A stretch of DNA of 61,379 bases, counting the filler, from Hausera hauseri (Eukaryota): NCBI GenBank assembly GCA_046269625.1. It is 11 parts of 11 records of this genome, joined end to end, with 100 filler letters (N's around TTAATTAATTAA, not from the genome) between each part and the next. Parts side by side here need not be neighbours in the genome. Positions count along the whole stretch, not along the records: positions 14,199 to 18,660 come from JBJURY010568895.1; 10 more parts are not named here. One strand, 5' to 3'. Shown piece by piece: positions 1 to 52,796 of the stretch (positions are counted from its first letter, which is position 1; every line of letters begins with the position of its first letter). The notes under the pieces are model-generated. The model saw only the letters and a list, made by a program, of their open reading frames with translations, ran no database searches and was not told the DNA's origin. The translations under genes and the position numbers were made by a program.

Positions 1-867
1 GTGCCCACTTATATACCAATCTATCACGACTCTAAGTGTATACGCATTTGTTCATCCCTTTAATTCAATAAAAGACCAAGATAAAGTCTCTCCCACAGCT
101 GAGTTAACGGGAACTGAACAATTATTATCACAATATTTAAAGGAAATGAACTTTGTTAATAAAAATTTAGGAGATATTTTGCGTTTTCAACCATTTTTAC
201 AATTCTATCAAATTTAACTGTCAATGAAAAATGAAATATTATGTTGATTACTAAACAATTATGAAATCTCATCAGAAAATAATTGAAAATACTCAAAAAT
301 GATTTTGGAACAAAAATCAGTTCAAAAATGTTGATGAAAAGTTTATTGAGATTTTCAGTATTTACAGTTTCTCGTATTTTGACAGTTACATGAAAATATT
401 GAATGTTTTTGTCTGATATTTCATCCTACTTGTTAAGGCTTTCAAAATGTTAAAAAATAATTAAATACTAAACCAGAACCAAATTGTGGTAAAGTATATC
501 AAAATTAAGCATAAAACATCCAATAAAACCAAACATAACTTACATTTCAGTAAATAATTCCGTGATATTGCTGAATATGAATTCTAAAAACTAATTACAA
601 AAAACCGATTAAAGAAAGAATAAACAATCAAAAATATATAAAAATCAAAAACCTGGAAAATGCAGGTAGGCAACTATATGCCAAAGACTGTAGTATTCCG
701 AATTTGATCAAAATGTGTTTAACAGTAACGAATTATTCCTAGCTAGTCTATTTGCAATCTCATTTGCAACTTTACTTTTCTATTTAATTGGTTGAGTATG
801 TCCATAGAGTAAAGTTATTAGGTGTACCAAAATAGATTACGAAAAAGTAAATCGAAATTAAAATTAC

Positions 868-3800
868 CTGATGAAATTGTGGATATCATATGTCTGAGGT
901 AATTCGTAAATGATGAATTATCAAATGGAATAAACTGAAGGTAGATCAGATAGAATTGAAAACATAACAAAGTATTTACCGTTTTTGAAGTGGAAATAAC
1001 TGGATGTTCGGGAAAAACAGGCCCAACATTAAAACCAAATGTTGACCTTGTGGAGTTTGGATTAACTGTAGCCGTTGAAATTGATTGAGATAGTATATTT
1101 GAACTTGTCGAAGTACTCTGTTCAGAAGTACTTGTATCGGTTGATATTTCTGTTGAGATAGTGCTAGGAGAAGCTGTCACTGTAGTTGTGGATGTAGGAG
1201 ATGTTCTTTCTGGTGTGACGGTGACAGTAGGAGTACCTGTATCAATTTCCAAAGCAATCGATATTGGTGAAGTTGACACAATGCGACGTTTCGGAGAAAC
1301 AGGACCGACCTTGAATTCTGAAGCTGATGTTGTCATATTTGGTGTAATTATGATAGTAGAAGTTGTGCTAGGAGTAAATGTGGACATATGAGTGGTTGTT
1401 TCAGGCATGCTTGAAGTGCTAGAAGAAGTTTCTTCAGGGGTACTTGTTTCAGTTGAAATTTCGGTGGATGTTGTTGTTTCAGGTGATGTTGAAGTGGTAG
1501 ACGTACTTTCTTCAGAGGTACTTGATTGGGTTGAAACTTTGGTGAATGTCGTTGTTATATGTGATGTTGAGATGGCAGAAGTACTTTCTTCAGAGGTGCT
1601 TGTTTGGGTTGAAATTTCGGTGGATGTTGTTGTTTGAGGAGATGTTGAGGTGGTAGAAGTACTTTCTTCTGGAGTCCTTGTTCGGGTTGAAATTGTGGTG
1701 GATGTTGTTGTTTGAGGTGATGTTGAGGTGGTAGAAGAACTTTCTTTAGGAGTGCTGGTTTGGGTTGAAATGGTGGTGGATGTCGTTGTCTGAGGTGATG
1801 CTGAGGTGGTAGAAGTACTTTCTTCTGGAGTACTTGTTCGGGTTGAACTTGTTGTGGATGTCGTTGTTTGAGGTAATGTTGAGGTGATAGTAGTACTTTC
1901 TTCAGGAGTACTAGTTTGACTTGAAATTGTGGAGGATGTCGTTGTTTCAGGTGATGTTGTGGTGGTAGATGTAATTTCTTCAGGAGTACCTGTTTGGGTT
2001 GAAATTGATGTGGATGTCGTTGTTTGAGGTGATGTTGAGACGGTAGAAGTACCTTCTTCAGGGGTACTTTTTTGGGTCAAAATTGTCGTGGATCTCGTGA
2101 TTTGAGGTGATGTTTTGGTGGTAGAAGTACTTTCTTCAGGGGTAGTTGTTTGGGTTGAAATTGTGGAAGATGTCGTTGTTTGAGGTAATGTTGTGGTGGT
2201 AGAAGTACTTTCTTCAGGAGTACTTGTTTGGGTTGAAATTATCATGGATGTTGTAGTGTCAGGTGACGTTGAGGCAGTAGAAGTACTTTCTTCAGTAGTA
2301 CTTGTTTGGTTTGAACTTGTTGTGGATGTCGTTATTTGAGGTGATGTTGAGATGGCAGAAGTATATTCTTCAGGAGTACTAGTTTGGCTTGAAATTGTGG
2401 AGGATGTCGTTGTTTGAGGTGATGTTGAGGTGGTAGAAGAACTTTCTTCAGGAGTACTTGTTTGGTTTGAACTTGTGGTGTATGTTGTTGTTTGAGGTGA
2501 TGTTGAGATGCTAGAAGTACTTTCTTCAGGTATACTTGTTTCGGTTGGACTTGTGGTGGATGTCGTGATTTGAGTTGATGTTGTGGTGATAGTAGTACTT
2601 TCTTCAGGAGTACTTGTTTTGGTTGAAATTGTTATGGATGTTGTTGTTTCAGGTGATGTTGAGGTAGTAGAAGTACTTTCTTCAGGAGTACTTGTTTGGT
2701 TTGAACTTGTTGTGGATGTCGTTGTTTGAGGAGATGTGGAGGTGATAGTAGTACTTTGTTCAGGAGTACTAGTTTGGGTTGAAATTGTGGAGTATGCCGT
2801 TGTTTGAGATAATGTTGTGGTGGTAGAAATACTTTGTTCAGGTGTACTTGTTTCGGTTGAACTTGTGGTGGATGTCGTTGTTTCAGGTGATGTTGAGTTG
2901 GTAGAAGTACTTTCTTCACGTGTACTTGTTTCGGTTGAACTTGTGGTGGATGTCGTTGTTTGAGATGATGTTGAGGTTGTAGAAGTACTTTCTTCAGGAG
3001 TACTAGTTTGGCTTGAAATTATGGAGGATGTCGTTGTATGAGGTGATGTTGAGATGGTAGAAGTACTTTCTTCAGGTATACTTGTTTCGGTTGAACTTGT
3101 GGTGGATGTCGTTGTTTCATGTGATGTTGAGGTGGTAGAAGTACTTTCTTCAGGTATACTTGTTGCGGTTGAACTTGTGGTGGATGTCGTTGTTTCAAGT
3201 GATGTTGAGGTGGTAGAAGTGCTTTCTTCACGTGTACTTGTTTCGGTTGAACTTGTTGTGGATGTCGTTTTTTGAGGTGATATTGTGGTGATATAAGTAC
3301 TTTCTTCAGGAGTACTTGATTGGTTTGAAACTGTTATGGATGTTGTTGTTTCATGTGACGTTGAGGTAGTAGAAGTACTTTCTTCAGGAGTACTTGTTTG
3401 GTTTGAACTTGTTGTGGATGTCGTTGATTGAGGTGATGTGGAGGTGATATTAGTACTTTCTTCAGGAGTGCTTGTTTGGGTTGAAATTGTGGAGGATGTC
3501 GTTGTTTGAGGTGATGTTGTGGTGGTAGAAGTACTTTCTTCAGGTATACTTGTTTCGGTTGAACTTGTGGTGGATGTTGTTGTTTCAGGTGATGTTGACG
3601 TGGTAGAAGTACTTTCTTCAGGTGTACTTGTTTTGGTTGAAATTGTGGAAGATGTCGTTGTTTGAGGTGATGTTGTGGAAGTGGATGAATTTCCTTCAGG
3701 TGTACTTGCTTGGGATGAAATTGATGTGGATATCGTTGTTTGAGGTGATGTTGAAATGGTAGAAGTGCTTTCTTCAGGGGTACTTGTTTGCGTTGAAATG

Positions 3801-4095
3801 GTTGTGGATGTTGTTCTTTGACTTGATGCTGAGGTGGTAGAAGTACTTTCTTCAGGGGTACTTGTTTGGGTTGAAATTGTCGTGGATGTCGTTGTTTGAG
3901 GTGATGTTGAGGTGGTAGAAGTACTTTCTTCAGAAGTACTTGTTTGGGTTGAAATTATGGAGTATGCCGTTGTTTGAGTTGATGTTGTGGTGGTAGAAGT
4001 ACTTTCTTCAGGAGTACTTGTTTGCTTTGAACTTGTTGTGGATGTTGTTGTTTGAGGTGATGTTGAGGTTGTAGAAATACTTTTTTCAGGAGTGC
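868..4095 (-). CDS. Mucin-like Ser/Thr-rich protein: large repeat exon running off the contig end, followed by small 3' exons
   Basis: ORF 818..2245 (T/S/P/E/Q-rich) stays open upstream of its first Met in the part checked, and the repeat continues to 4095. A 45-nt GT..AG intron lies at 935..979 and a further donor at 867, so the ORF tail is intronic read-through. Confidence 0.8.
1400..4095 (-). repeat. Coding tandem repeat, 78-bp unit (26 aa, consensus TSTPEESTSTTSTSPQTTTSTTISTQ), about 34 imperfect copies
   Basis: The anchor motif ACTTTCTTCAGG recurs every 78 nt, e.g. near 1430, 1508 and 1586. Confidence 0.9.
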
Positions 4096-4261: not shown

Positions 4262-4810
4262 CAGTGGTGGCAAAAAGTTTGTTGAATTAGCAAATATTTG
4301 TAATTATTACAAGATATACTTAGATATCTCATCAAGCATAATATAAAAGTTTTGACTGTTATAAAACATTTATTACATACAAGTCCAACGTTTACCAAAT
4401 AATCCAATCAATATTTCATTGTACCACCTCGAGCGTTAATCAGATGTTCGATTTGTTTGGGCAGTGATTTGTATAGATTTTGAACTTCTTCGAGTGAAAT
4501 AACATGATTCCAGCATTTAATAATACTTTTATTAGTTGTTGTTTGGTGGCAGGTTGCTCCTTAAACACAAGGCACTTCAATTTATACCAAAGGTTTTCAA
4601 TTATATTGATATCAGGAGATTGGGCAGGCCAATCGAGCCTCGTGATGCCCCTCTCCTGAATCCAATGTTGAACAAGACGTGCACTGTGACAAGGAGCATT
4701 GTCATCTTGCAGAATAAAACGGTTCATGTTTTTATCTCTGTTATTATCCAAGCAATCGATCATTTAGGATATTAATGTAAGACTGACTGGTTAAGTTTCC
4801 CTGAAGATTT
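4262..4810 (-). mobile_element. Tc1-like (DD34E) transposon, 3' part with one TIR
   Basis: TA|CAGTGGTGGCAAAAAGTTT end at 4262. Translation ILQDDNAPCH...WPAQSPDINIIENLW, frameshifted near the C-terminus. The 5' half is replaced by unrelated sequence. Confidence 0.85.
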
Positions 4811-13497: not shown

Positions 13498-14098
13498 TTA
13501 GGTTATGTCAAAAGTAATGTCGTTTTTTTTACTAAAAATGAAACGTGAAAAATTAAATAACAAACAAGTATTTTATTGGACAATTTAATCTCCATCGCGT
13601 TGTATCACTTCATGCCACCTGGAAACCAAATTTTCTATACCTGATTTGTAAAAATCTTCAGATTTGGATTCGAAATACTCATCAAGTGCCTTTTTGAGAG
13701 CATCGATTGAAACAAATTTTTTCCCTAAAAGATAATGTTGTAGGGACCTGAAAAGACAATAATCTGTAGGTGCAAGATCAGGACTATAAGGTGGGTGAGG
13801 AAGAAGATCCCAGCCAAATTCCTTAATTTTTTCCAGCGTCTTTTTTGCTGTGTGTGGTCTTGCGTTGTCCTGATGCAATACAACCCCTTTTCTATTTGCA
13901 ATTACTGGCAAGTTTTCTTTGATTTTTTCATGTAAACGGGTCAGTTGCTCTCCATATAAATCGGTATTAATTGTAACACCAGGTTTGAGCAACTCATAAT
14001 AAACGATACCTTTGCGATACCACCAAACGCATAATAAAACTTTCTTACCATGAATATTGGGTTTTGCAGTAGATGTTGAGGGTTGTCCGGGGGAAAGC
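13498..14098 (-). mobile_element. mariner (DD34D) transposon, 3' part with TIR
   Basis: HGKKVLLCVWW, LHQDNARPH, LPHPPYSPDLAPTDY. TIR-like TA|TTAGGTTATGTCAAAAGTAATGTCG at 13498. Confidence 0.92.
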
Positions 14099-14198: not shown

Positions 14199-15170
14199 TG
14201 GAATAATAGTAATTATGTTAAACGAAAGAACAATAGCACGCAGAAGTATGAGCGATACTATAAAAATTGAAGTTTTTAACAAACATCAGCTACATAGGCT
14301 GAATTAGACGTAGAAACGAAATTACGTTTTAGATTAAAAAATAATGGTCAGAAGTCGAATAATAAAAAGAAATATGCTAAGGATGGAAGAACATTGCCCT
14401 GTGTAGATTCTGAAGGAAGATTAAGATGTTTTAACTGTAATAAATATTGCCACATCGCCAAAATGTGTCGATCATGCAAGCGGAAATTCCCTTAGTCCAA
14501 AGATAGTAACAAGTATAAGAAAGGCTACATGTCAGCCGCACCGGATGAATCGTTAGACAAGAAATACGAAACGGAGGATAAAGTTAGTAAACACGAAAAT
14601 AAAGAGAAGGATAAGAAGAAAGAAAGTGTTAATTATGTTAACGATATATTATCTCAATGGATGAAGATGCAATTAGATATGGAATTGAAAGATTACAAAA
14701 CTCGGCAGAAGAGGTTGCGAGATAACAGTATTTACATGGTAGAAGAAGAAACTAAAGGTAGAAAACCTCATCAAAGTTGAAAGAAAGGTAACAATAAATT
14801 GTGAGAAGTGAAGTATAACAAGAGAAGAAAAAAGGATGAGAAAAGAGCATCCTTCGCAAATCCACATTAGAAGAAAGCGATAATAAAGTACAACCTATAA
14901 AAACATTTGAGGGAACAGTAATTGAACAAGTAGTGTGGGATATAGAAGCTTATTTGGATGTTGAAGATGATATCATAGAAGCGGTAGTTGCAATCAACCC
15001 TGAAAATATAATTGACGTAAATAAAGCAACAACATCGATATTTAAACTAATAGATAATAAATTATCAACAGTTGAACTAAATGAAATCTTATTCCAATTA
15101 TTAATATTAGCTCACGACCATAGTCCCGTACGAGAAATAACACGAACAGACACAAAGAAGAAACTATAGA
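14199..15170 (+). mobile_element. Degenerate retroelement gag region with CCHC zinc knuckle
   Basis: CFNCNKYCHIAKMC (CX2CX4HX4C) at 14427-14468, followed by A-rich charged coding sequence with stops and frameshifts; intronless. Confidence 0.65.
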
Positions 15171-15177
15171 TAATATA

Positions 15178-15834
15178 ATGAGGAAATTAGAACCACCTGA
15201 AGAAGGAATGCATCCGTTAGGTGACACTCAGGACGTTACGGTCAAAACGGAAGCTAGAAGAAGAGGAAGGCCCATAGGAACGAAGATACGTTACATTTGC
15301 TATAAAATCGATAGAAACGACGAGATTGTACGCCGTTTACTGTTGACAGAAACGGATACAAAATCAAAATCTGTAAACACAGATCCTCTATTACCGACGT
15401 TACTAGCAAAATTACATACATTATTTACGTCTTTTGATATGCAGGTCACAATACCTGATGAACTGTTTCAAACCATACGCAATAGCATGCCACGAATCAT
15501 CAGGAAATTTTACGAAAACATTAGTGAAAAAAGGATTAATGAATTACATGACCAAGACATTCTAGAAACAGTGTTCGCCACCGGAATCACAAGAGAAAAA
15601 GTATTGACAGCCATAGCTTATCTACTATATAAATTAATGGCTATTAATTACCAAGCACAGAATCTGTAGGAAATTGAGCGTAACGTAAAGACAACGATTA
15701 AAATCCTACGAGGTACGCTGGAAAATTGGGTTCAATGTAGAGGTGGTTGGATGCAAAGTTTAATGAATAGTAGGATAAGAACCGAAATTCATGAAAGGTC
15801 ATCAGGTATGCTAACCATGACCCTATGTAGGTAA
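15178..15834 (+). pseudogene. Bcl-2 family (BOK-like) domain with one internal TAG, downstream of gag
   Basis: BH1-like VFATGITREKVLTAIAY at 15571. In the same frame past TAG 15667-15669 is BH2-like LRGTLENWVQCRGGW, ending at 15750. Spacing matches BOK IFSAGITWGKVVSLY...RKTLATWLRRRGGW. Confidence 0.72.
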
Positions 15835-17667
15835 TGTCATTATGATTTTGTATTATCAATAAAAATTTCACGGATTCACTATTTTAAAGTACTATATGAT
15901 ATAGAGTAATAGTAATACACATATTTAGTAAGTATTGGAATGTAGTATTGATATTTTAGTGATGCATTTGTCTTGTGGAACATGAATGGTGATTTGATTC
16001 AATTTATAAAATGACGTGTGTGCATATCATATTTTAACTATATACATCCAAAATTAAGTAAAATTTGCATTACTACATTTAGTTGGATTTCCCGAAAGCT
16101 GTACTTCGGATTCTAGTTCGTTAATAATTGAGTTAGACTATAAATGTCTAAATGTAGCAGATATAGTTTGTTAAATAACGTGAATTCATAAAAAAGTACA
16201 ATCGATATATAACTGATAATCTATATATAAATAATCAATCAAATCATGAAATCAACTGACAAAAGGAAGGGACAATATTTTGATATAATCATTGTATTAT
16301 GTGAGATTAGAAAAAATGTTATAGAAATTACCAACTAATCATCGAACTATTTCCGAGGTCTATTAAAATGCAAGTCGAATAATACCCGAAGAATCCATAA
16401 ACAAATATACAGCCTCATCCGAGGTAAATAATTGAAATAATTGCAATTAAAATAAATACGAACTAATTTTCATTCATCTGTTTGTTATTGAAATGTTTCG
16501 GTCACGAATTACTGTCTTTTGTATAGAAACGGCAATTTGTAATTTTAACGGTTAACAAAGGAACAGAAGGTGTTGATTTGAGGAGGGTGTGGCATAAAAT
16601 TATGTATTGTTTTCTGTTTAATGGGGATAATTCGATGGGGGTAATTGGTTTACAAGGGAACGAATTGTACAAGTAAATCTGGGAGACTTTTTATAACAAA
16701 ATATCAGAGAGACGTACAAAATACAATGCTCATTAATTATGTGAAAGAAATTTTTGACAGTATTTCGCATCTGTTCAAATCCCCCCACACTTCAGAAAAT
16801 TTTTTATAAATTTTCTCGAGTTTTTTTGTTTTTCTCAAATATTAATTTGCATCCATTATAGAAAAACAAACAAAATGACGTTAGACAATAGAGATGATTG
16901 TTTGTTTAAATTTTTTGATAATACTTGTCAATATTTTGTATTGTTTTGATAAGTTAAATATTTTGTTTGTAGAAAAATTTTTCCGACCATTAAAATTTGA
17001 CTCATAACATGTGATCATTCATGTGTAAAGTTAATATTTATATAGAAGGAAGAAATATAACAAAAGAAATGAAAATTTGCATGTTAAGGGGAAAATGGAA
17101 GAAGTGCCAAATGGTTTCATCAGCATCATGTTCAGAAATCAAGCAGGAATAAGTGCTAGAAAATGAAAGGGGGCTGGAATTTGCAATAATCAATATTTAA
17201 TTTGACTTCAGTTTCATCTGTTTCAGTTTTAATTTGCGATGACGACTCGATGACTGGCCAAGTTTGCTCACGTGACTTGACTTCCTTGCAAAACCTATTA
17301 TTCGATGTGTAATAAACTTGGAAATCGATTCTTGATGAGACGATTGAAATCTTATTTCCGTGAAAGCTCGACAGAAGCTGTTTTCATGGGGCTACCGCAA
17401 CATTTCAGTAAAATGTAACACTGCAACAACATGGCTGCATATTCATCTCTTGGAACTTCTTTATTATCCCCAAACTCTTTCTTCGAATGTATTTTGCAGG
17501 GGTTAAATAGTGAACAAGTACCAAAGCATAGGGTGAATAATGCAAACAGGTCATCCAATATGTAATAAGCCATGTTCATTCATTATTTTGAAGCCGGATG
17601 TTTATTTTATCGACCAAACTCGTTGATTACTGCATATTCTAAATCACTTGAACTACAATTATTCACC

Positions 17668-18180
17668 ATGCGATCTATATTTTATTCCTTAATATCATTT
17701 TTATTCATAATATTACATGGTTCGGATGGTTGGTTTTTCAATCAACGTTATTTACTACTTACTGAACTTGTACGTAGTCTAATTTTCAATTTAGGTCGCA
17801 TCGATAAGGCATTTTCCTTATTCAAATATTCGTGCTCGTGTGGTAATATTTTACCATCGAATTCTGCTCATTTCCTTTCAAATGCTCTCATAAATGCCGG
17901 CTATCGATCAATAATGAAAAAGAAATGGGTCAGTAGATGCCCGTTAAAACGATTGGTGAAGTCTGAAGATGTTCGAGAATGGGTTCGAAAAAAACTCCGA
18001 CGATATTATCCACATGAAATATCTCGACGACGTGGGACAAAATATTATGTGGTATTTCAAGCTCGATCGTCGTTCAGCGATGGACATGTTTTGTTGATGC
18101 GATTTATTGATGGGAAATATTCGGATTTTGCTGGTACAGGGAATAATCCCGATTGGACAATTCAAGAATTTTATAGATGA
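17668..18180 (+). CDS. Small secreted protein, possible papain-fold amidase-like (Tae4/Amidase-type) family
   Basis: Signal peptide MRSIFYSLISFLFIILHGSDG. Motifs CSCG...NSAHFLSNALINAGY and GHVLLM. Probable in-frame 48-nt intron at 17747-17794. Confidence 0.5.
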   Translation: MRSIFYSLISFLFIILHGSDGWFFNQRYLLLTELVRSLIFNLGRIDKAFSLFKYSCSCGNILPSNSAHFLSNALINAGYRSIMKKKWVSRCPLKRLVKSEDVREWVRKKLRRYYPHEISRRRGTKYYVVFQARSSFSDGHVLLMRFIDGKYSDFAGTGNNPDWTIQEFYR

Positions 18181-18760
18181 ACAGTATTTATTTTGGTCTG
18201 GGTTTAGACTAAATATGATGAATTTGTTTTGATGTTGTATATATATGGACAGAGATGGTCATAAAAATAAACATTCGAGTCTCGAATGTTCATTTAGCTA
18301 TCTACTGAATGTTGCGAATTACCGATTATTTATATTTTATCAAAAAATCTCCAATACGTATTGTGGAGGTCATTGGAGTATGATAGTAAATTAAATTACA
18401 ATCGATAGTAAATTATTCAAATATTGAACATCGATAAGGTCAGTTTTGAAATTGATTGGTTGAATTTTGAATACGAATGTTTATTGATTATTTTGAAAGT
18501 CATCTGATCAAATTGTAATTCATAAATCGAAGTACCACTGATTTAATTTAAGAAAGTCACTGGTAATATAAGACTGTGGTGCTGGCGTCGACTGTTGCCC
18601 TCCGGCCCATTCGGTTGGGCACGGTCGGGTTTTCCGCCGCCGGCGTGTCGGGCGCATAGANNNNNNNNNNNNNNNNNNNNNNNNNNNNNNNNNNNNNNNN
18701 NNNNTTAATTAATTAANNNNNNNNNNNNNNNNNNNNNNNNNNNNNNNNNNNNNNNNNNNN

Positions 18761-18837
18761 ACCCTTCCACTGGACGTACACAGTCGCTAACATCCAGACG
18801 GCAATTATAAAATCCCACTTTCTCTCACATTACAATT
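18761..18837 (+). repeat. 77-bp exact terminal direct repeat of this contig (second copy 23217..23293)
   Basis: ACCCTTCCACTGGACG...CACATTACAATT is identical at both contig ends. Confidence 0.95.
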
Positions 18838-19106
18838 TACTGCAGTCAATGATGTTTGAGGAACGACACGACTCGCGACATTTCTGGACATGTCAATAGC
18901 ATTTCGACTACCGCGCAGTCGACCGGAATGCGGAGATCTTAAAAAAACCAATGAATAATTCGAATTTTCATAACCACAATTTAGTTCGTCAATTTTTAAA
19001 TAATAATACTAATATTCGATTGAGGTTCAATGTCGATAATTGCGGTACTGCCATCAAAGTTGGTTCATTCGACGAAAATATTTCATCCAACACCATTTTC
19101 AATTCG

Positions 19107-19196
19107 ACCACTCCTTTTCGTCACTACAAATACCTGTTTATGACATTCGGTTTGCGAAATGCCGTACAAAATTTTCAGCGCCACATTGATTCAATT
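19107..19196 (+). mobile_element. Gypsy reverse transcriptase fragment fused in frame to the BI-1 fragment
   Basis: TTPFRHYKYLFMTFGLRNAVQNFQRHIDSI matches the RT TPFG...MPFGLxNAxxxFQR motif. Confidence 0.8.
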
Positions 19197-19198
19197 CC

Positions 19199-19549
19199 AT
19201 TTAATTTCATGAGTGTTTTCAAATTTGATCATTTAGATAAGGATGTTCAGAATCATTTACGAAATGTTTATAGTACACTGGCCATTGGTTTCGTAGCAGC
19301 TACTGGTGGTGCGTATGTACGCTCAGTGCCCTACTTAATCGATAACGGGTGTTTATCTTCTTTGCAGGAATTTTGTTCACGGCATTGAATGTACTGTTGA
19401 TGGTTGGATTCGTCAATTTGCTTATTGGATCTCGCGTTATCATAACAGCTGAACTATATTTGGGACTGGCGGTGTTCTGCTTGTTTGTTCTTTTTGACAC
19501 GCAGCTCATCGATGAGAAACGACGATTGGGCGATACGGATTTTATTTGC
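19199..19549 (+). pseudogene. TMBIM6: Bax inhibitor-1 fragments (N-terminal and C-terminal pieces, middle deleted)
   Basis: FKFDHLDKDVQNHLRNVYSTL...GGAYV and ELYLGLAVFCLFVLFDTQLIDEKRRLGDTDFI match BI-1 (HLKKVY; FVLFDTQLIIEK..GD.DY). Confidence 0.85.
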
Positions 19550-19789
19550 CTTTTTTTTAATATTTTATATTCTTTTGGCATATTTTGGAAAAATTTAAAA
19601 TAAAAATTGATTGTTTTCGTCCATTGTGAATTTTGCTATATCAATTTTAGATATTCATTTGCCAATTTTCTGTTGGAATTTTATATTATCGTTTTGGAAT
19701 TATTTTGTACATGCAGCGATTTATCAGTTAGCACTTTATAAATTGGTGTCAGACGTCTTTACAAAACTATTGTTTTATAATTGCATGTC

Positions 19790-20826
19790 ATGATAAAATA
19801 TTTTGCCATCAATAAAAGTCCTTCCAAACCCCATGCAATATCCAACTCAAGTCACGATAAAGGAAATACCAATCATTCTGAAAAGTCAAATCAGTCTCCT
19901 GAAAATGCCGAGTTCTATTCGAAAGAACGAGAAGAGATGTGGATAAAAATTTATACAAAGAAGCATTAGAATATCAAATGCAGTCGAACCATTCAAAATT
20001 AATTACGTGTTTGGAAGAAATTCTTTTTTCTCAATCATTGCAGAAAAATGATTTGGAATTCCATTTATCGGTCATTCAGGCAGAAGCGTACAAATTACTA
20101 GCCCACACGTACTGTAAAATGGATAAGTACGACGATTCGTTTGCGTTCTACAAAATAGCCATTAGATTGAATGAGAGATTTAAATTTATGGCGCGGATAT
20201 GCCGTCACGTGTGAACGATTGAAATATTCGAAGAAAGCCGTTGTTGGATACGAAGAGGTGTTGAAAATTAACGGTAGTTACTGGCCGGCATTGGATTTAT
20301 TGATAATTCTCACGTATTCGTTGGTACAGTTTGAGAAATGCCTGAAATTGTGCGAAATGGCTCTCGGTTTGGATTCACAATATGAGGCGGTCATTTATGT
20401 CGTTCAGTCGATTTTCTCATTTCAGCCATTTCTGAAGTTTTTTACGAATTTCGGTGAAATTGATCAAATTTTTTGGATTCGTCAATTTTCTCGAAGATAA
20501 ACAGTAAATTTGACGCTATCCGATCGAACATCCATGCTGAACGAATCGAAGAAGAATTGTGGAGTAAAGTTGATGTTATAAATTTTCTGAATTGGTTGAA
20601 AATAATCAATTGGGAATGTTTGACAAAGGCCATACTAGACATGTTTCAATATTTGAAACTATTAAATAAATTGGAGAGTATTATTAATTGTGGCCGTTTG
20701 TTGACAGATAACGATCTGAAATTGTTCATAGACCCTTTATCAAATTGTAACAGTAGGGATGATAAAGAACTTATCGAAGCCGTGAAAGAGAATGCAATGG
20801 AATGTGCTCCAGAGAATTATTCATAG
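19790..20826 (+). pseudogene. CABIN1: CABIN1 N-terminal TPR region, frameshifted and truncated
   Basis: MIKYFAIN; LYKEALEYQ; DLNLW...YEEVLKINGSYWPALDLLIILTYSL...ALGLDSQY...IFSFQPFL, compared with CABIN1 DVNLW...HWPCLDNLITVLY...IFEEQPCL. Confidence 0.75.
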
Positions 20827-21339
<513 letters not shown>

Positions 21340-21387
21340 GTAAGTCGACTGATGATGTATTTATATTTTCTGTAAATGATATTATAG

Positions 21388-21511
21388 TTCAATTTGTTGC
21401 CACGTTTATGCTTTAGTCCAAAAGTCAGATAGGAAGTACGATGAAGCCATGAAATATTATTTGAGAGCATTGAAAATGGATAAAATTAACATTCCGATAT
21501 TGCGCAATTTG
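21388..21511 (+). pseudogene. NAA15: NatA auxiliary subunit NAA15/NAA16 TPR fragment
   Basis: [40 protein letters not shown] versus NAA15 [40 protein letters not shown]. Preceded by intron-like 21340-21387 (GTAAGT...AG). Confidence 0.8.
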
Positions 21512-23293
21512 AGGGGAAACGCGGCCACCCTGCATTTTGGGGCCCGCCGTGCCGAGGCGGAGGTCCCGACCGTCAACCCTGCTCCGGTTGGTCGGACGAC
21601 GCCTTTCGCATCGTCCCTACACCACGCCACTAGACGCACTACTTATTCCCCCTCTATTTTCCTTTTCCTCAATAATACCCATATTTACACAATCACAGCA
21701 CCACATTTACATATTGCAACTCATCGTACCTTCATTTCTTTTTCACTTAACTCTTCAGAATTTTATCTCACTCATAACGGCGCTATAATACCTCTCACCG
21801 GAACCCTACCATTTTTCTCGAGCAACACTTGTTTCCACATACATCCCCGTATCCGTGGTGGCATGTACCCTTCGCCAACCATTGACACCACGGATAAAAC
21901 CGCCACAAAACCAAAATCTGTCATATTACTTCAAAAACCCACTCCTAATCCTGTTAGAAACTTCCAACTCATTACCTATTCAGCTCCTTTCCCTAACTGC
22001 ACCGAATTTTTCATTGCCAACCAAGGCTCCAGCGAAACTTGGTTGCAATTCCATTAACTATAGCTATAGGTAAATAACATCACCGACTCTTTAACTAAAG
22101 CACATAATCTTCTCTTCCTACTGCCTAATAGTATCAAAGCACGCATTCACAATATTATCGAAATCTTCGAACTTCCAGACCCATATTCCCAACTTTCTAA
22201 CGCAGTTTTTAAGATTACAGAACCTTCCATAGACACGATCATACGTTTCTTCCACGACATCGTTATAGGCACCCAACAGCCATCAGAATTCTTACGTACT
22301 TCTTTAGCACATCTCCATACCCTCGGCGTCACTAAGGAACACAACCAAAATCTACTGCACCACTATTTCCTTAATGCGCTACCTATCCAAATCCGGGTCC
22401 TACTTACCGTGGTGGAGGACTCGACACCGTTTGAGAAATTGGCCGAATTAGTCGATAGAACACGATGTCCTACATGTAAATTCTCCACCAGTTGTTTCAG
22501 CAGCAGTTGCCGCTAACGATAATACATCCATAGAACAATAGCTTAATCAGCTCCGTGCTGAAAATATTGCACTGCCTGCAACAATCAACAATATCAATAA
22601 TGAACTAAGCAAACTTACCCTATCCCGCCGGAGGGATTTTGCCGCTGACCGCGTCCGTTCTGAGTCTAGAAACCGCTCACCATCACCGGCGCGTTTGTCG
22701 ATCTGCTGTTACCACAGCAGATTTAACACTAATGCTCCGAACTGCTGCCTAGGGTGCAAATTTTATAACAAGAATTTTTCCTCGGACACCTTTGTTTGCA
22801 TCTACCATGCAAGGTAAAAAAAACCAAGCTCGTAAATGTATTCAAGGCTGCACTTCAAATCCAATACGAACGACGGACGTACTGTCTTTCCTTCTAATAG
22901 TCGTCCTAATTCACCCTTTCTAAAAACTAAGTTCGCAGCCAGAAGTCACGGCAAACTATGGCAAAGGCACTACTTCACTTTCTGAACGCCGACATGTCTT
23001 TTTTGCTGTCTTTACTGTAAAGGCTGCAATCACTGCTCCTACAACGCAATCTATTGACTTCCTCATCGATACAGGTGCAGCGATTTCTTTATTACCACAA
23101 ACCTTTCCTATACAAAATTCTCCATTTAAAATTAAGCCCTTATACACTGCTTCAGGCCAACCGCTGCACATTTCTGGCATGGCTAAATTATCTTTCACGT
23201 TACCAAATTTTCCTTTACCCTTCCACTGGACGTACACAGTCGCTAACATCCAGACGGCAATTATAAAATCCCACTTTCTCTCACATTACAATT
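21511..23293 (+). mobile_element. Gypsy (CsRN1-like) retrotransposon copy A: GC-rich leader, UBL-RIRGG, gag, protease (degenerate)
   Basis: Gag motifs QQPSEFLR, YFLNALP, KLAELVD and CCYH...C...C; protease FLIDTGAAISLLP. Homologous to 44341-45457 and 52797-56605. Confidence 0.88.
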
Positions 23294-23393: not shown

Positions 23394-24529
23394 ATTCATA
23401 GGTTAGCAACACTTCGCCCGTAACTCGACCGAAAATTCCTTCTCTCATTGGAATTATTGGAGAAGCCAGTTCTGGGTTTGCATATATAAGAGTCATTTTA
23501 GTTCTCATAATTTCTGTATCCAATTTACAGTCATTCATTATCATTTTATCATATAGTTCCTTTATTCCTACTTGTCCTTTATAGTAGAAGTAATCGTCTC
23601 TATTTTTCAGATAGTCTTCAATCCGAACATCCTGCATTTCTAATTTGTAGGTTTTTGCGTTTATTTCCGTTTCGGCTACAAAGAACGCTTCGTAGTTTGT
23701 GGCGAACATTACTACATCGCAGCGAGTCATCATTTATTTTTTTATAAATTTTAGTCTATGCGATTCCGGGATGTTCCGATACATCTTCGCGTTTTCTTGA
23801 ATTAGTCTCCGATTTGTCTACATAACGTTTTCCGGTAGTTTCATTAAACTTTAACACTTTAATTTTGATAAAGTTACAGCTTCTTGCCGAGGGAGGTTCC
23901 CATATTATAACCGAACTACTAAAAGCACAAGTTCCGTCTTGTAAATGGCATTTTTGATTCTCAGTGTATAACTTAGTGATACTATGGAACATCACCTCCT
24001 GTGATCGCATTTCTAATTCGTAGAAATCCACAACCACCACGTTTGATTCCAATCCTTTTCCGGTGTCATATTTGGTTCCACTACAGTGTCCGCTATGCAT
24101 ATCTAGTTTTCCGGCTACCACTTTATATGCCGTAATTATTTTCCCTGGCTGCATCTTCAATTGCATATTATCCCATTGTATTCTTCCAGTTTCTTTGGCT
24201 TGCTTACAGTGTTGGCGTTCTAAATTCATCGGAATTAGTGGAGTTGTTGGCTTAATTATAGAGGAGTGTCCATGTACTAAACCGCAGTAAAAAATGCTTC
24301 GTGATTGTCTCAGCATGCATTCCATCCCATCCTACGATATCAGTTCTCGTTGTTGGTATAGGAAGTAGTGTTTCTCCTTTGTCTCCAACTTGTGTAGTCT
24401 GGCATTTTCGCACACTTCCAAATCCATTAGGGAGTACCTCTGTCTTAGTTTAAATTTTTTGCAATCGTAGACAGTTACGGCGCCTATGTGTTTAATTATT
24501 ATCATCAAGGTGAGTAAGTTAATCAGCAA
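23394..24529 (-). pseudogene. Viral-type envelope glycoprotein (chuvirus-like, class III fusion type) with internal signal peptide
   Basis: LLINLLTLMIIIKHIGA|VTVYDC...YSLMDLEVC...FYCGLVHGHSS...VAGKLD..GHCSGTKY...CHLQDGTC...IIW...NPELA...GRVTGEVLLTYE, the Cys/motif pattern of chuvirus-like G proteins. Confidence 0.72.
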
Positions 24530-27500
24530 ATTTGATTCGTTCTTTCGGCCTCCAACATCTGCAGTTGTCAAGTTACTTAATATATTATCGAGTTTACTAC
24601 TGCTTCGTTTGTCTTCTTCCGTATCACATAGCCCTGACCAATTTACTTCGCAGGGCAATCTTCTCGCAGCTTTTCGTGCTAAGCTTATAGCTTTATTGAT
24701 TTCATTCTGCCGATTAGGATTTATTTTGATGGCTAAGTATAGTAATACTTTTCTCAATTCTTCTTTAGTGTTTTCTACAATGATCTTTTCTATTATCGAC
24801 TCGTCGGTTAAGTTACTGTTTGATAATTTGAAACGCGAACTTCTCATCATTTTGGCTGCATCAAAAATTATTTTTTCTTTATCCTCTAACACATCACCTC
24901 GAAGGCTTGAATAATTTACAATTCCTATTAAATTCTTCATTATCTCGTTTAATTCTTCATTATCTGTACTAAAGGTCGGAATTGACATTTGCTTAATTCT
25001 CTAATCAATTCTCTGTTATAATCTTCTTCTTCTCGCGTTTTCGTGGGCTTACCTACTAGACGTTTCGGTTTTTGGCCTCTGGAAGTCATTTCACTCAGTG
25101 GTATTAAATTTATATCATATTGTTCCTTATCTTAGTCCGTTTGTAAGTACTCAAAATTCATTGCAGTATCTTGAAATCCCATAACTTGTCCTACGCATTT
25201 TTCTGACTTGGCCTTACGCGTAGCTTCCTCTCTGGTTTGTTCGTTAGTTACTACTACCACTACCCGGTTCGTTTCGCCAATAATGATCCCGACATCTATT
25301 AACTGCTATAGGTCATCGAGTATTCTGCCCCTAAAGTAGAATCTATAGTTTAGCTCATTTGTTCCACCATTATTTAACAACCATTCTTGCGCGTCTCTTA
25401 CATATGAATATGTAGTTAACTCACATTCTTTTTCATCCATCCATTCGGATGATACCATTACTTTCATAGCTAACTAAGGTTTATTCCTTAAAATTTTAGC
25501 ATATTTCCTTACCAAAGGTTTCGTCACCGTGCTATAAATCGTGTTCTCACTGGATAATTTAGTTAAAGTTGGAATAAGTTGTCTTAATTTATTTTCAATA
25601 ATATTTACGTTAATTAATTCAATCAAATCCTTTTCAGTTAGCGCTGAATCCAGTAGCATCTCCACATCGAATCTTCTGTTCTGTGGGCACGTTTCTATCT
25701 CATTCAATTGTATTGGAGTCATGGGCTTTTCGGTCAGTATTGCATCGAAGTATGCATCCCATTCCGGCTCGTTTCCGACATCTAGAAGTCCAACGTCTAT
25801 CGCAATTGTTTTTGCTCTCTGTACATTTTTCCGAATTTCTTTCAACCTGGGTTGTATTTCCTTCATCTGCGTAGTTCGGAAACCTACTCCATTCCCACAA
25901 GCACATTGAGTCATTTTCAGTAATTCTCCGAATTCGTTAGAGTCGATGAGTTTCTTTTTGGGGATAATCTGTTAATTCAATGATTACATATTTTTGCCAT
26001 CTCTGTACAAATTCTCGTTTATTCTTGATTTCTGACTCGGTAAAAGCATATTTGTTTCGATAGATTTCGAGCTCTTTTGTTATTTCATTTAACATTGTCG
26101 CTCTTTGTTTCGTTTTGATACATGTTTCTTCTACTTTCTGTATCTTTGGCATCAATTGCCTCATTTGCTCATCACTGATTTTTGCCAACTGATTTTGCTA
26201 ACTCATACATCCCATTTATAACCTTTAAGTCAGGGTCCATTGCATCCGACAATTTCTTTACGAACTTGTGTTCCAGAAAACTAAAATGCAGATCGTCTCT
26301 GATTTTTGTCAACTTGGTATGGAAATTCTGATCTAATTCGGCCATCCATTCTCGTGGTTTGTGTAAGAATTTTATTGCGTCCGTTAACGTATCTCGATGT
26401 CCTGGACAAATGTCCAAGATTTCAATGTCTTGGGCAGAGATTTCGTCGATCGGTTTTCCCGTTAAATATTGGACTCCTTCTAGTCGAACAACCCTTAACC
26501 TTGAGTTCACATCGTAAATCATATTTTGCTTTTCCGTAAAGTTCGTCTCCTCAATCAGTTTGTAGATCTCCTCCAATATCAACGCTTCTAGTTCCTTTTC
26601 CATAAATTTTAGTCGTCGTAACGCTTCAAATTGAGTACGGATGTCTATTCCTATTCGCATTGTGCCTAAATCATATGCACTTTCTTCTAATTGCTTCTTT
26701 ACTATTGGCTCGCTTTGCGGAAATTCCTTTTTCCGGTCTTATACTAATCTACTTAATCGCGTTACTAATTCGGACCATTCCTACAATTGATTTGCGATAA
26801 TTGTCTTGGCTAGTATAGCCTTATCTAGCATCTTATATGTATCCTTTAACTCATCGTCTGGTCCTCTTAGGAAGTTCATAATCCGGCCGACATAACTAAA
26901 CTCGTCCTTGTACTCGTCCAACTCTGTGATACAAGCTTTTGTTATATATTGAGTCTCCTCGCTATTTGGGGACATGATTCGGTTCCTCAAGCTATAAATC
27001 TGTGCTCGCTTTTCATTTTCTATCTTAATTCAATTTTCTAGGCTTGTATATTGTTTAGGCGTAGCAAATGCGATTTTTATCATCTCCGTCAAGGGAGAAA
27101 TATCCAACGAGTTTATACCCAATATTTCTAAATCGATCTTACTGCGATGGTTAACCGGTTTTTCCCTAATCCGGTTAATCACTAAGTGACGAATTTCATC
27201 CATCATACGTTCTAAGTTTCGGACCACTCTCTACAATTTCGGCTTTGCCTCTAGAGCAGACAATAGCGTCTGAGCCTTGGTGACTTTTACGTCGACTCTA
27301 TCTTCATTTTTATTCCACCCTTTCGAAAATTCTACTCCGCTTTTAATCCAGGATTCTAATTCCTGCTTCCGTTTTAACAACGTTTCGGTCGATATTTCTT
27401 CTGGCTGTTCTAGGTCGATTGCTTCTGCGAGCTTACCTTCACTGTATAGTTTTCGGCTCTTATATAATCTCTCCGCATACTGTTGTTCTTTTCCGGATAT

Positions 27501-28541
27501 ATCTACTTGTTCACTGATTTGCTTGAGCCGTTCTAAATTCCGTTGCAATACTTCCGGATTATGACATCTAATTCTCATTTTCTTTAACTCATCGGCGTTT
27601 TTCCACGAACGCCGGACTTTCCACTTTTTTGGATCGAAATCCTTAGTATTCTCTGTTTCTTCGTCACTAATGGGAAGCGGACAAATCTCGTTGATTTCAT
27701 TAATTGACTCTATAGACTCCGGTACTCCGACAGGTGTGGGTGAACCAATCTCCGGTTTATTCAAACTATGATCCAGGTTACTTTCTACAACGATGTTCGG
27801 ATTTTCTTTTTCTTCAACTTTCTCTCTAGTTATTTTGGAGCGTGAACGACTTCTACCTCTCGTTTCTAAAGAAGGGCTACGGCCTTTATATTTCGTAATT
27901 TTAAGTATTAATGGTACCATAAATTCTTTTTCTGCTGCGTCGTCATCCGTGGACTTCTCTACTCTTTCAACTGTGAACTCAGGCTCTACATATAAGTCGA
28001 CTTCTGTCGATGTGCCTGGTTTCTCAATTGGTTTATTACTTATCGGAACACTCTTTTTCTATGTCATATCGCTTCGTTTTTGTGCAATCGGGTTCTACTG
28101 AACCGTGGTATACTTTTAGTAGTCTTAGTTTATCTTTGTACTCTTTTTTAGCCGCCAGAATTTGTGGATTATTGGATTCGGGCTGAGCGTCTAGGTATTT
28201 CCGCAAGTCTTGTATATCAATTATAGTGCCCGTACCTCCAAGAAGGCCATACTTTGCTTCTAAGTTTTCGTCCATTCTGATCATACTGGTCTTATTTGGC
28301 TCAGTGAATGAAACACTACGTGGGTTTGGATATGATCTTAAAATGTGTCCTTCTTTTCCTCAAGTAAAACAAACTAAGTTTTCATTTCTACTGACTCTTT
28401 GTCGACCGTCTTCGTTCACCGGTGACTTAGATTTATTTATATTTTTATTAAATTGGTTTGAAAAGCTTTGAACATTATCTATATTTCTTAGATTATCATT
28501 ATTTCGGTTATCGCCGTTCTGGTTTGAGTAATTCGAGCCTT
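23394..28541 (-). mobile_element. Degenerate env-bearing retroelement, copy 1: gag knuckle remnant, long insert, chuvirus-type glycoprotein
   Basis: Broken knuckle LVCFT*GKEGH near 28340-28380, followed by collinear ORF pieces homologous to 28642-31600 and ending in the glycoprotein. Confidence 0.75.
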
Positions 28542-28641: not shown

Positions 28642-31600
28642 AATTAAAGAGAATAAGAATTAATTGCCTCGATCCGGAAGTATTACAACTTAAGAAAATG
28701 AGTGAACAAGTAGACATTTTTGGTAAAGAACAGCAGTTTGTGAAAAGATTATACAAAAGATTGAAATTATGTAGTGAAGGGAAACTCACTGATGCAATAG
28801 ACTTAGAAAAACCTGAAGAAGTATCATTAGAAACGTTAGAAAAAAGGAAACACGAGGTAGAAATATGGATAAAAAATGGAATCAAATTTCCAGAAGCCTG
28901 GGACAAATACACGGAGGATATCGGAGCAAGAGTAGAAAAAAACGCAGACATCACGGACTACATTAAAAGCCAATCCTAGATTAAAAAGAGTAACACGCAA
29001 CTTAGAGTGCGTCATGAATGGAATTAGATTTGAAATGATTGAACGACTCAAAGAAAAACCGGTTAATGAACGAAAAGAAATTGATTTAGAAATATTGAGC
29101 ATAGACCAAGTAGATATTTTTCCCTTAATAGAAATGATAAAAATCGTTTCCTCTGTGCCTAAACAATATGGGAACTTAGAAAATCGTATTAAGATTGGAA
29201 GCGAGAAACGGTCGCAAATTTACAGTTTTAGAAACAGAATTATGCACATGAATAAGGAGGAAACACAGAATATAATCAAGGACTGTACCATTGAATTTGA
29301 TGAGTATGAGGATGAATTCAATTGTGTCAATCAGATTATGAGTTTTATCAGAGGTCCTGATGACAAATTAGAAGACGCATACAAAACGCTAGACAAACCA
29401 ATACTAGTAAAACATGTAATAGTTAATCAGCTAAATGAATGGTCCAGATTAATATCCAGACTAAGTAAATTAGTGCATAGCAGTATAAAGGAATTTCCAG
29501 AAAGCGAGCCTACAGTAAAGAAACAACTAGAAGAAAGTGCATGGAACTTGGATACAATAAGAGTGGAAATAGATATCTGGACTCAACTTGATGCATTGTG
29601 CCAATTGAAGTTCATGAAACGAAAGCAAGGAACGACGATATTGGAAGAGATATACAAAACTATTGAAAAAACGAGCTTCACAGAAAAGCGGAATATGACT
29701 TGCAATTTCTATCCAAGATTAAGAAACGTCAGCCTAGAAGGAATTCAACATTTGACAGCTAAACCTATTGGAGTGGTCTCGATTCAGGATCTCGAAACTT
29801 TATATGTTTGTCCAAAACATAGAACAGCTATAGGGAAAGCAATGAAATTTATACCAAATCACAAGAGTGGATGACCGGAACAGATCAAAATTTCCACACC
29901 AAATGATCAAATAAGAAACGACCATCATCTCAATTTTGGGAAGCTAAATTTGTAAAGACATTGCTCGATGTGATAAATCCAGACTCAAAAATCCTTAATG
30001 ATATGTCAGAGTTAGCACTGCTAATAGTAGAAATGTCAGAAATTAGTAAAGAGAAGAAAAGACAGTTGATGCCTCAAATACGTCAAGCCGAAGAAATGTG
30101 CATTAGATCCAAATAAAGAGCGTAGGGTTGGACGAACTAACCAGAGCTCGAAATCTATAGAATGTGGGATACTATTACAGAGTCAGAAATGGCTGACAAG
30201 TCACGATTTGTGCAAAGTTGGCAAAGAGACGTAGCGTCTGAATTAACTAATTATCAAGAAAAAGGATTGATACAGGCCGATAAATTATGCCAGTTGCTAA
30301 CATTATTGCATCAGACCTCCGGAAATGGACGTTGTTTCCGAACAGCACAAATGGTTAAAATGAAACAAAAATTATGCGAACTAAGAGAATTGATATGTGA
30401 TACAAACGCAGTCCGACCAGCGGACATGCCAGTGATTGATTATAGACCGCCAGATAATGAAAATGATCCAGAATTGGATGTGTACTTAGATGCAATGGTT
30501 GCCGAGAATCCGAAAATTCCTGTACATTTGTACGAAACTGAGACGTGCCCACAGGATCGGTGATTCAGTATGGAGATGCTTTTAGATTCAGCGCAGACTG
30601 AAAAAGTCTTAATTAAATTAATTAATGTAAACATTAACGAAGTTAAGTTATGACAGTTAGTTCTTACCATGCCTAAATTATCTAGTGAAAGTACCATTTA
30701 TAGTGCCGTGCCGAAACATTTAATAAAGGAATATGCTAAAATCTTAAGGGCTAAGTCTGAAGAAACGATTAAAGTAAGGGTATCGTCAGACTGGATGGAC
30801 GAAAAGAGTGCGAGTTCACTACGCACTCCTATGTAAGTCACGTAATACAGTGGCTAATAAGCAATGGTTGCGGATATGAATGGAATTATAGACTCTTTCA
30901 GAGGTAGAATATTAGACGAACTGTACCAATTAATAGACGCTGGGATCCTCCCAGACGAAAAAAATCGTATAATGGCAATGGTCGCCACTGAGGAAACGAA
31001 AGAAACCACGCGAAAGGCTAAAGCTAATTAGTGTATAGAGCGAATTATGGAAGTTCGAGACGCAGCAATGTATTTCGAATACTTGCAAACAGGTGAAGAT
31101 AAAGAACTGTATTATAAGAATTTAATACCCCTTAGCGAAGCCATATCGGTTATGGCAAAACAGAAGCATCCTGTCGATAGACCACGGAAAATGCGAGCAG
31201 GAATTGATTATAATGGAGATCTGGTTAGAGAATTAAGACAAATGTCTATACTTACCTTCAGAGCTGAGAATAAGGTGTTAAATGAACTCATGAAAAATTT
31301 GATACGCATAGTAAATCATTCTAGTCCCCGTGGCAATATAATAGATGAGAAAGTAAAAGCTATATATAATGCAGCCAGAATAATGAGAAATTTCAGTTTT
31401 AGAGATGTACTTATTAATATTGAAGAAAAGAGATGCATACAATAACTTCCGGTATTATATCAAAAAGCACTCTAACAGATCAGATAATGATCGAGAAACT
31501 TATGGTAGAAAATACCATGGAAGAGTTACGAAAAGCCCTCCTCTATCAATAGTAATAGTAGACTCGAAGATATGGTACGAAATTTAACCGGAAATAATCG

Positions 31601-33519
31601 AGGAAACGAATTAAACTGGCCTTAATATATACCAATCCTGAGCTAGCATAGCAGATAATTCCAATAAAGGAAGGAGTTTTTGACCAAGTAACCGGAGAAG
31701 TTTTATTGACTTATGAATGCGAGAAAAGCGATGTCCTTATTAATATTGAAAAAAGAGATGCATACAACAACTTTCGATATTATATCAAGATATGCCGAGA
31801 TTAGTGACGCCGATTACTAGTTTTACTGGCCAACTCAACTCAACCAACAATTCTGAAGGATTGTAAAACGAGTTTAGGTGAACCAATGCTTTGACGTGGC
31901 GAAACGGATTGGATAAGTTTACCAAATTGAGGTATAATCACTCTACTCATTAAGCGAACCGGAACAAATTTAGTAAAAGGAACAACCGATGTTAAATTTC
32001 AAGACACCGCAGCCAAAGGTGTTTGCATGCCAAAAGAAGTTGAAGCATTTAGACAATTTCTTGCTTTTCCACATCATCGTACACATAAACTAAACCGGGC
32101 TATGCATACGATATTAGAAGTTACACTTTATCAAGTGAAATGAAAATCAATACTTGGCGTTAACATTATCAAAGAGTAACCACAGATATCTTATATAAAA
32201 TTTGCGGAAGACTTTTAATTTTTGGACAATCCGCATAATGATTTTTAGCAGTCTAGTTCTTAATCCAACTATTTAAATCAGTAATTCAAGCGATTATAAA
32301 CTGTTATGAGATATTCACCCTAACAGGATTCTCGTGAAAATTATTAACAGCTATTATCACACCATTTGGCAAATTCCTAAAAGCTGTCGAAGAAAGCCGA
32401 TGGAAGGCAGATGTTAAACGACATGTTGGCTATCATAATCGGAAACGTAAAAGAAGACACATATGCAATTACAAACGCAAATTCGTAAATATCAAACCGA
32501 GAAGAGAAAACTCTGATGATGACGACTAGCCTAAGGGAGGAGACGCCGTCTCCAAGACAAATAGACACAAAACCTATTCCGTTACAAAAGCACCGTTACC
32601 AATATTACCGCCAACTGCATCTATATATAAATATTGTGAGAAGCAATCTATGAGTTAATATCAAACGGATATCTATACAAAACCGTAGAAAATATCTATA
32701 GAAAGCCATATAAAGAAACAAAACATTACGATGTGTTACGTAAAATGCACAAAACTAAATGAACCTCTGCCTCATATCGTCGTTCAGCAGTTGACGACCA
32801 TGAAACATTTTATTCCCTTAGAATACCCAGGATGAAAGAGGCACGCCCAACACTTTCAAGAGACCACGAAATGCATGTGTTTAGAAACCAAGAAATGCAG
32901 TAACCAGTTAGAAGCCAACAAACGGAAATTGTCCATTGCGCGAGCAATGAACTGTATCCAAATGGAAAGCTAATGTAATTAATCGACCAGACAGTGGCAA
33001 TCACAGAAGTCAGAATTAATGAGTATAAGGTATCAACGATTCAACATCGAAAAATAGCACCGAATTGCTATCGCACGATAATCGAAGGTAGACCCTTCAC
33101 TAAAATTCAGTTAGAAGATTGGGAAGTCTACGCATTGGTAGACACAAGATCCGAAATATCGTTTATAAAGCTTGACTCAATACCTCAGTTTCTATGGAAA
33201 CAACTATATGTACCTCCAAGAACAGATCCAGGAAGTATTGGAGCTTTTGGACAATCATCAAAAAGTAAATATAGATGGAATCCAGAAATTCACATAATGG
33301 GGCAATCGTTTCGCAATGAATTCTTGGTAATGGAACAGTTAACGTATGACGTAGTATTAGAATGTGATCTGTTGAAACAACTACCAAATGTAGCCATAGA
33401 CTTCCATGCGGGAAAATTAATAGAACTCCGTCCGATAAAATGAATTAAAACTATTAAAGGTAGGAAATTTGGAGAAGAATGGATCCCAATGGGCGAAAAC
33501 ATCACACATAGAAGTGAAA
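28642..33519 (+). mobile_element. Env-bearing retroelement, copy 2 (more decayed; env N-half deleted), followed by aspartic protease
   Basis: Collinear with copy 1 (GKEQQFVKRLYK, FIRGPDDKL, ETCPQDR). Env remnant NPELA...VTGEVLLTYEC near 31630-31720, hydrophobic TM-like region near 32210-32370, protease VYALVDTRSEISFI near 33126-33165. Confidence 0.78.
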
Positions 33520-52649: not shown

Positions 52650-52792
52650 TGCAGTTTCTCTTTTTGAAAAAGAATATGTTGATATTAGAATCAAAAGCTC
52701 GAAAAGTCGGGATTACTGCTACCAATTCCCTCTAACTCCTTTGACATTATTTTCTAAAACAAGTTTTGTGCACTGGTATGTTGGATATGGAC
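52650..52792 (+). pseudogene. Scrambled alpha-tubulin C-terminal fragments directly upstream of Gypsy copy C
   Basis: FD/LFSKTSFVHWYVG versus alpha-tubulin FDLMYAKRAFVHWYVG. LFEKEYVDI versus LEKDYEEV is a weaker match. Confidence 0.55.
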
Positions 52793-52796
52793 CTTT

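Follow-up and report, generated by a model that had tools for sequence, protein, structure and literature searches.

A dead Gag-Bcl-2-Env polyprotein copy in Hausera hauseri, probably left by a Burro-like retroelement

Planarian Burro/GYPSM1 elements are gypsy-like giant long terminal repeat (LTR) retrotransposons (PMC6431247, citing Jurka 2007 and Grohme 2018). According to excerpts of that source, their polyprotein carries Gag, two or three CCHC knuckles and a Ubi2/SUMO-like motif between MATH and BCL-2. A mononegavirus-like Env lies between BCL2 and the protease, followed by dUTPase and reverse transcriptase (RT), in an open reading frame (ORF) of 4,873-5,140 residues. The order Env-protease-dUTPase-RT-RNase H-integrase is contained in one ORF, and the elements exceed 30 kb with their LTRs. 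Their accessory domains include MATH, Smc, midasin-like, BIR and ankyrin domains, MATH being a separate ORF in Dugesia tigrina, and decayed copies occur in Dugesia japonica. The same excerpts already propose interference with host apoptosis, and a second-hand report in part of another source credits the IAP region of Burro1 with protecting stem cells from apoptosis (PMC13465017). Here we analysed a 61,379-nucleotide stretch of Hausera hauseri DNA (the window), in which the contig at 14199-18660 (JBJURY010568895.1) holds, at its 5' edge, a copy of a gene for a Gag-Bcl-2-Env polyprotein that is cut at 5', internally shortened, frameshifted and lacking Env. This copy is very probably the remnant of a Burro-like polyprotein. 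The first-pass annotation of the locus had supposed that capture of a Bcl-2 family gene by a retroelement was undescribed, which was wrong, as the Burro excerpts place BCL2-like domains between Gag and Env. Taken as a whole, the locus is probably a dead copy of a gypsy-type retroelement polyprotein whose captured Bcl-2-like domain would have dampened cell death at host membranes.

The evidence that the Bcl-2-like domain belongs to a retroelement comes from an open relative. The Bcl-2-like frame of the window copy was used as a phmmer query over 1,835,955,588 cluster-representative proteins, and exactly one match was returned (E 9.9e-42, 43% identity over residues 577-761). This protein, P0002, is a singleton of 1130 residues, encoded in a single open frame on a 4786-base contig. 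Its domain order is an Arc-like capsid (25-178, matching the dArc2 capsid, E 0.0068), one CCHC knuckle (197-212, Pfam zf-CCHC, E 2.5e-4), a weakly matched ubiquitin-like stretch (473-522, Pfam E 0.031), RGRP, the Bcl-2-like domain, a hydrophobic signal and a mononegavirus/chuvirus-type Env (793-980, Monjiviricetes_fusion glycoprotein, PF24664, E 6.3e-19), within which P0002 ends. The most hydrophobic 19-residue window begins at 784, and this hydrophobic stretch (784-802) lies about 35 residues beyond BH2, at the start of the Env profile. By joining Env to capsid, knuckle and Bcl-2-like domain in a single frame, P0002 bears out the earlier proposal that the domain is part of a gag-type retroelement polyprotein, and provides the linkage to gag in another copy that the first-pass annotation had named as a test. 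A processed host BOK/BAK pseudogene that landed by chance beside a gag remnant might have been suspected from the window copy, which is broken and lacks Env and pol. This origin is extremely improbable and is already refuted by P0002, which has the same domain in a single open frame between Gag and Env. Identity to BOK is also far below identity to P0002, and many diverged copies cover the region in the public sequencing run described below. Further searches added no relative: a word-seeded protein search with the Bcl-2-like frame (its stop read as X) gave 0 of 475 candidates at E<=0.1, the same search with P0002 gave none among 4193 longer candidates and itself alone among 7998 near-length candidates, and DNA collections yielded pattern matches in viral contigs (one) and metagenome contigs (283), of which none was confirmed. 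An Atlas search with P0002 600-770 gave no usable match and an NCBIfam search no relevant one.

The upstream part of the window copy is colinear with P0002, three of its four pieces aligning in order (P0002 172-210, 212-328 and 349-444) and the fourth not above chance (166 of 500 shuffles reached its score). All features given here are on the plus strand. The first piece (14298-14492, frame +3) holds the end of the Gag capsid region and the nucleocapsid, and none of 500 shuffles equalled its score against P0002 172-210; since the contig begins at 14199, the capsid sequence further upstream is cut off. Within this piece lies a CX2CX4HX4C zinc knuckle (14427-14468; Pfam zf-CCHC E 0.046, P0002 counterpart 197-210 at E 2.5e-4), a motif found nowhere else when all six frames of the 61 kb window are read. 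It is followed by a charged, low-complexity linker (14496-14837, frame +3; P0002 212-328, score reached by 2 of 500 shuffles) and a helical/acidic middle region (14840-15166, frame +2; weakly aligned to P0002 349-444, 9 of 500 shuffles). P0002 residues about 445-537, including the ubiquitin-like stretch, have no counterpart in the window copy. Frame +1 then carries RGRP (15262-15273), which is common to both copies (P0002 585-588) and which we take to be AT-hook-like, the Pfam AT-hook profile matching neither copy. The Bcl-2-like domain (15454-15756) matches the Pfam Bcl-2 family, BOK 6ckv and P0002 577-761. It comprises a BH3-equivalent, IPDEL (15451-15465), a BH1-equivalent, TGITREK (15580-15600), and a BH2, WVQCRGGW (15727-15750), which is the sole BH2-like motif in six frames of the window. 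Frame +1 is closed by a TAA (15832-15834) with neither a signal peptide nor Env after it: the frames downstream gave no alignment to P0002 765-960 above chance (88-159 of 500 shuffles reached the score) and no Pfam match.

The knuckle, RGRP, TGITREK, the in-frame TAG (15667-15669) and WVQCRGGW were all present as claimed in the first-pass annotation, and the stretch is A-rich as it said (42% A over 14200-15834). The single coding run that it described was not confirmed. The reading passes from frame +3 (knuckle) through +2 (acidic middle) to +1 (Bcl-2-like part), with one frame change near 14840-14860 and a second between about 15145 and 15240, and the aligned path crosses four stops (14493, 14778, 14802 and 15667). 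The last of these is the TAG between the BH1 and BH2 equivalents. It lies inside an ungapped aligned stretch and is therefore not intronic; an intron-borne TAG was considered and rejected, each of three in-frame GT..AG options excising the aligned BH1 helix. Two frame changes and four stops indicate that the window copy is dead. It cannot make protein and has no function as protein.

The domain itself is very probably a true Bcl-2 homologue. With frame +1 translated with X at the TAG for profile and PDB searches, Bcl-2 (PF00452) was the top Pfam family for both copies. Residues 123-209 of the X-read frame matched profile positions 17-100 of 100 (E 6e-5, 24 bits), and P0002 651-748 matched the same family (E 0.055 for the whole protein; E 0.0048, 17.9 bits for the segment alone). 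A PDB search with the window copy ranked BOK 6ckv first (E 0.027, 17 bits) and BAX next (E 0.73, 12 bits). The earlier label "BOK-like" was not confirmed, as 17 against 12 bits does not settle BOK identity, and BOK is at most a candidate donor. The BH2 W..xGGW motif is present in both copies (WVQCRGGW in the window, WVKCRGGW in P0002). The domain shares with host BOK and BAX, its best PDB matches, the BH2 W..RGGW and an aligned F.TGI..K BH1 zone; it differs from them in its low similarity (17 and 12 bits), the lack of NWG/TWG and its fusion into Gag.

Several observations weigh against the overall reading. P0002 is the only relative known, and its ubiquitin-like call is weak, with Atlas leads to ubiquitin/Rad60-SLD at 0.77. 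There was no direct match to an RT, an LTR or a Burro sequence, the Burro protein search being a weak one. The Bcl-2 scores of both copies are under the curated Pfam cut-off of 31.4 bits, and a profile built from the two sequences did no better against the PDB (BOK E 0.16). Neither copy has a glycine at the aligned position of the BH1 NWGR glycine (TREK in the window and SRNK in P0002, opposite TWGK in BOK), and the BH3 G-D is P-D in both. The sub-threshold scores and PDB E-values of 0.027-0.16 also speak for a rival reading in which the likeness to Bcl-2 is convergence, on the part of an amphipathic helical Gag-accessory domain that bears a W..RGGW motif. The folding models were too poor for a fold test (mean pLDDT 38.2 and 42.4). 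Searches with a low-confidence model gave no Foldseek match at E<=0.001 (among the 45 matches listed, the 13 of BAK/BFL-1 type had E 0.9-2.3 and do not count as evidence) and no Bcl-2 protein among the 50 listed in a VIA fold search, which is no evidence either way. We consider convergence improbable, as two sequences of 43% identity each have Bcl-2 as top Pfam family, with almost all of the profile covered (E 6e-5 and 0.0048), the BH3, BH1 and BH2 equivalents stand in correct order and spacing, and BCL2 occupies the same slot in the Burro polyprotein as excerpted (PMC6431247).

Sequencing run X1, one public run containing this stretch, was used to look at related copies. X1 possibly comes from the source sample itself, and copy number cannot be read off its depth; both points likewise count against leaning on it. 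Over 14200-18650 there were 3687 X1 contigs, mostly below 95% identity and many of them on other repeats there. Summed depth was 237-864 over 15094-15838, compared with 4-7.5 in unique flank bins. At each of 16 listed differences in the Bcl-2-like frame, 3-36 diverged X1 contigs carried another letter, making up at least about 95% of depth; these 16, taken from the 40 best-supported of 314 rows and limited by that choice, split 9/4/3 over codon positions 1/2/3. As sequence patterns, the depth and this split fit a repeat family whose window copy would have decayed without selection. Directly after the TAA lies a T-rich, repeated, non-coding stretch (15835-16136, no strand assigned) with variable joints and loose ends among the X1 contigs and a summed depth of 2349-2837, against roughly 7 once the flank past 16286 is reached. 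The T-rich stretch shows no recognisable LTR or polypurine tract, and no second copy was found on the contig; it is possibly the end of the element or a separate repeat.

What the domain did in the open element can be proposed from its place in the polyprotein. Synthesis of the polyprotein would take place in the cytosol. Residues 784-802 of P0002, which form the hydrophobic stretch, are taken as the Env signal sequence, because the Env profile starts there, which would leave Gag, the ubiquitin-like stretch and the Bcl-2-like domain in the cytosol. Host Bcl-2 proteins carry a tail anchor. At the equivalent position, the Env signal may also anchor the Gag-ubiquitin-like-Bcl-2 part on the cytosolic membrane face, where the Bcl-2-like domain could bind host BAK/BAX-type or BH3-only partners. 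By buffering BAK/BAX-type killing, it would promote survival of element-expressing cells. Such an anti-death function is possible, with chances a little short of even. The BH1 NWGR glycine is reported, in part of one source, as required for the pro-survival activity of Bcl-2, KSHV Bcl-2 and F1L (PMC2836074). Its absence from both copies makes a classic anti-apoptotic action uncertain, and since the NWGR signature is absent we do not file the domain as a canonical pro-survival member. In excerpted accounts of viral Bcl-2 mimics (EBV BHRF1, KSHV Bcl-2 and vaccinia F1L; PMC9609553, PMC2836074), these too are host-derived Bcl-2-family domains with divergent BH motifs in selfish elements, but they are stand-alone genes of large DNA viruses that keep the BH1 glycine, whereas here a polyprotein domain lacks it.

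The missing BH1 and BH3 glycines in both copies also suit a non-apoptotic role for a Bcl-2-derived domain in the same element, as a membrane-proximal scaffold, a matrix-like Gag-Env tether or an inhibitor of innate-immune signalling. Poxviral Bcl-2-fold proteins inhibit innate-immune signalling. Two Env-bearing relatives in the window point the same way, having a helical stretch at the same place and no detectable Bcl-2 (E>1; hhalign probability 1.3%), which suggests that the element may be able to do without the domain or let it drift. A non-apoptotic role nevertheless seems somewhat unlikely, though it is a serious rival. BH2 W..RGGW is retained in both copies at 43% overall identity, and a BH1 that has diverged to LGVR, its glycine being kept, does not stop vaccinia F1L from working (PMC9609553, in part). 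Burro elements, in the excerpts cited above, have other apoptosis modules (BIR), one with a reported function (PMC6431247, PMC13465017). A dampening of cell death remains the role that we prefer.

The Env-bearing relatives lie on two other contigs of the window, at 23394-28541 (minus strand) and 28642-33519 (plus strand), and are decayed gag-like elements, 67% identical over 2.8 kb. Their Env is of Monjiviricetes type. The first has its N-terminal part (E 3.1e-20) and matches P0002 716-1119. The second has the C-terminal part (E 2.3e-9) followed by retropepsin (E 1e-4), which is the Burro order of Env before protease. This genome thus does contain elements in which Env stands between gag-like sequence and a protease. 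The idea, formed by eye, that these elements carry Bcl-2 was not supported. Separately, the helical stretch ahead of their Env signal shows a faint likeness to the last helices of Bcl-2, which is not significant.

Compared with Burro as excerpted in PMC6431247, P0002 has the same N-terminal Gag with a CCHC knuckle, possibly the same ubiquitin/SUMO-like stretch directly before the BCL2-like domain (the ubiquitin match being weak) and the same mononegavirus-type Env in frame right after BCL2, the window copy ending before Env. The Env-before-protease order is seen only on a related window contig that has no detectable Bcl-2, and decayed copies with stops and frameshifts occur in both. P0002 differs from Burro in having one knuckle rather than two or three, in beginning its Env at about residue 790 compared with an ORF1 of 4,873-5,140 residues, and in giving no Pfam match (E<=1) to MATH, Smc, midasin-like, BIR or ankyrin domains, which may lie outside the known stretch. 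The element thus works like Burro in layout and is more compact; its membership of Burro is unproven. Anakin, a group of BEL-Pao elements with a chuvirus glycoprotein (PMC7642597, in part), similarly consists of LTR retroelements that have captured a fusion glycoprotein of chuvirus/Monjiviricetes type. In contrast to Anakin, P0002 has a capsid whose best structural relative is the gypsy-derived dArc, and carries Env behind a Bcl-2-like domain, in frame with gag, Bcl-2 not being mentioned in the Anakin abstract. A literature search, with two key papers outside it, found no report of a retroelement Bcl-2 beyond Burro and no functional test of the BCL2 module.

The window as a whole consists of 11 unrelated contigs, each 4-10 kb long and separated from the next by an N linker, the N runs surrounding a linker with stops in all frames, and neighbourhood across linkers is meaningless. 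Host-type genes found elsewhere in it by Pfam scan (V-ATPase proteolipid, kringle, MAP65/PRC1 and amine oxidase), together with a mucin-like Ser/Thr-rich ORF of about 33 tandem 78-base units (818-4095, minus strand), indicate an AT-rich animal genome. On the remainder of contig 14199-18660, a Pfam search with stops read as X found no pol, Env or other domain, in agreement with the first-pass annotation as to pol, and no LTR pair was found on the contig. Its single-copy flank has a 170-residue ORF with a hydrophobic N-terminus (17668-18177, plus strand); by eye, its NSAHFLSNAL...GHVLL presumably resembles an NlpC/P60-type amidase in which another residue stands in place of the catalytic Cys, with no Pfam or PDB support. 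An intronless RING-finger remnant (38835-39239, minus strand; Pfam E 7e-4) lies within a purine-rich decayed coding run and is possibly a further accessory domain of a retroelement. Three related gypsy-type gag-pol remnants, of 65-70% DNA identity, lie on the plus strand at 21500-23293, 44750-45457 and 52750-56100, one with DUF7041 (E 4e-4). Contig 18761-23293 has identical first and last 77 bases, likely an assembly overlap or circularity artefact, and carries a short Bax inhibitor-1-like fragment (18900-19385, plus strand; Pfam E 0.07, weak) beside RT-like sequence. Fragments at 13585-14098, 4440-4763 and 58571-60044 (minus strand) and 35783-36292 (plus strand) are, by eye, presumably pieces of mariner and Tc1 transposases and relics of Polinton-like DNA polymerase B.

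As a dead repeat, the window copy is in itself ordinary. Almost all that is known of apoptosis regulators carried by retroelements comes from planarian Burro, whose IAP module is reported, in the excerpts cited, to aid stem-cell survival. A bolder reading, tentative and unlikely as it stands, is that P0002 and the window copy belong to a separate compact Env-bearing gypsy lineage, possibly of a non-planarian animal, in which the Env signal serves as the tail anchor of the captured Bcl-2 and from which a Gag-Bcl-2 derivative without Env may have multiplied to many copies. As a short open Gag-ubiquitin-like-Bcl-2-Env protein, P0002 offers a tractable domain for asking how retroelements use Bcl-2 and whether an Env signal doubles as an anchor. 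If the compact lineage is real, each particle-producing cell would gain a membrane-bound death inhibitor, and carriage of Bcl-2 would be an old or repeated feature of animal retroelements rather than a planarian oddity.
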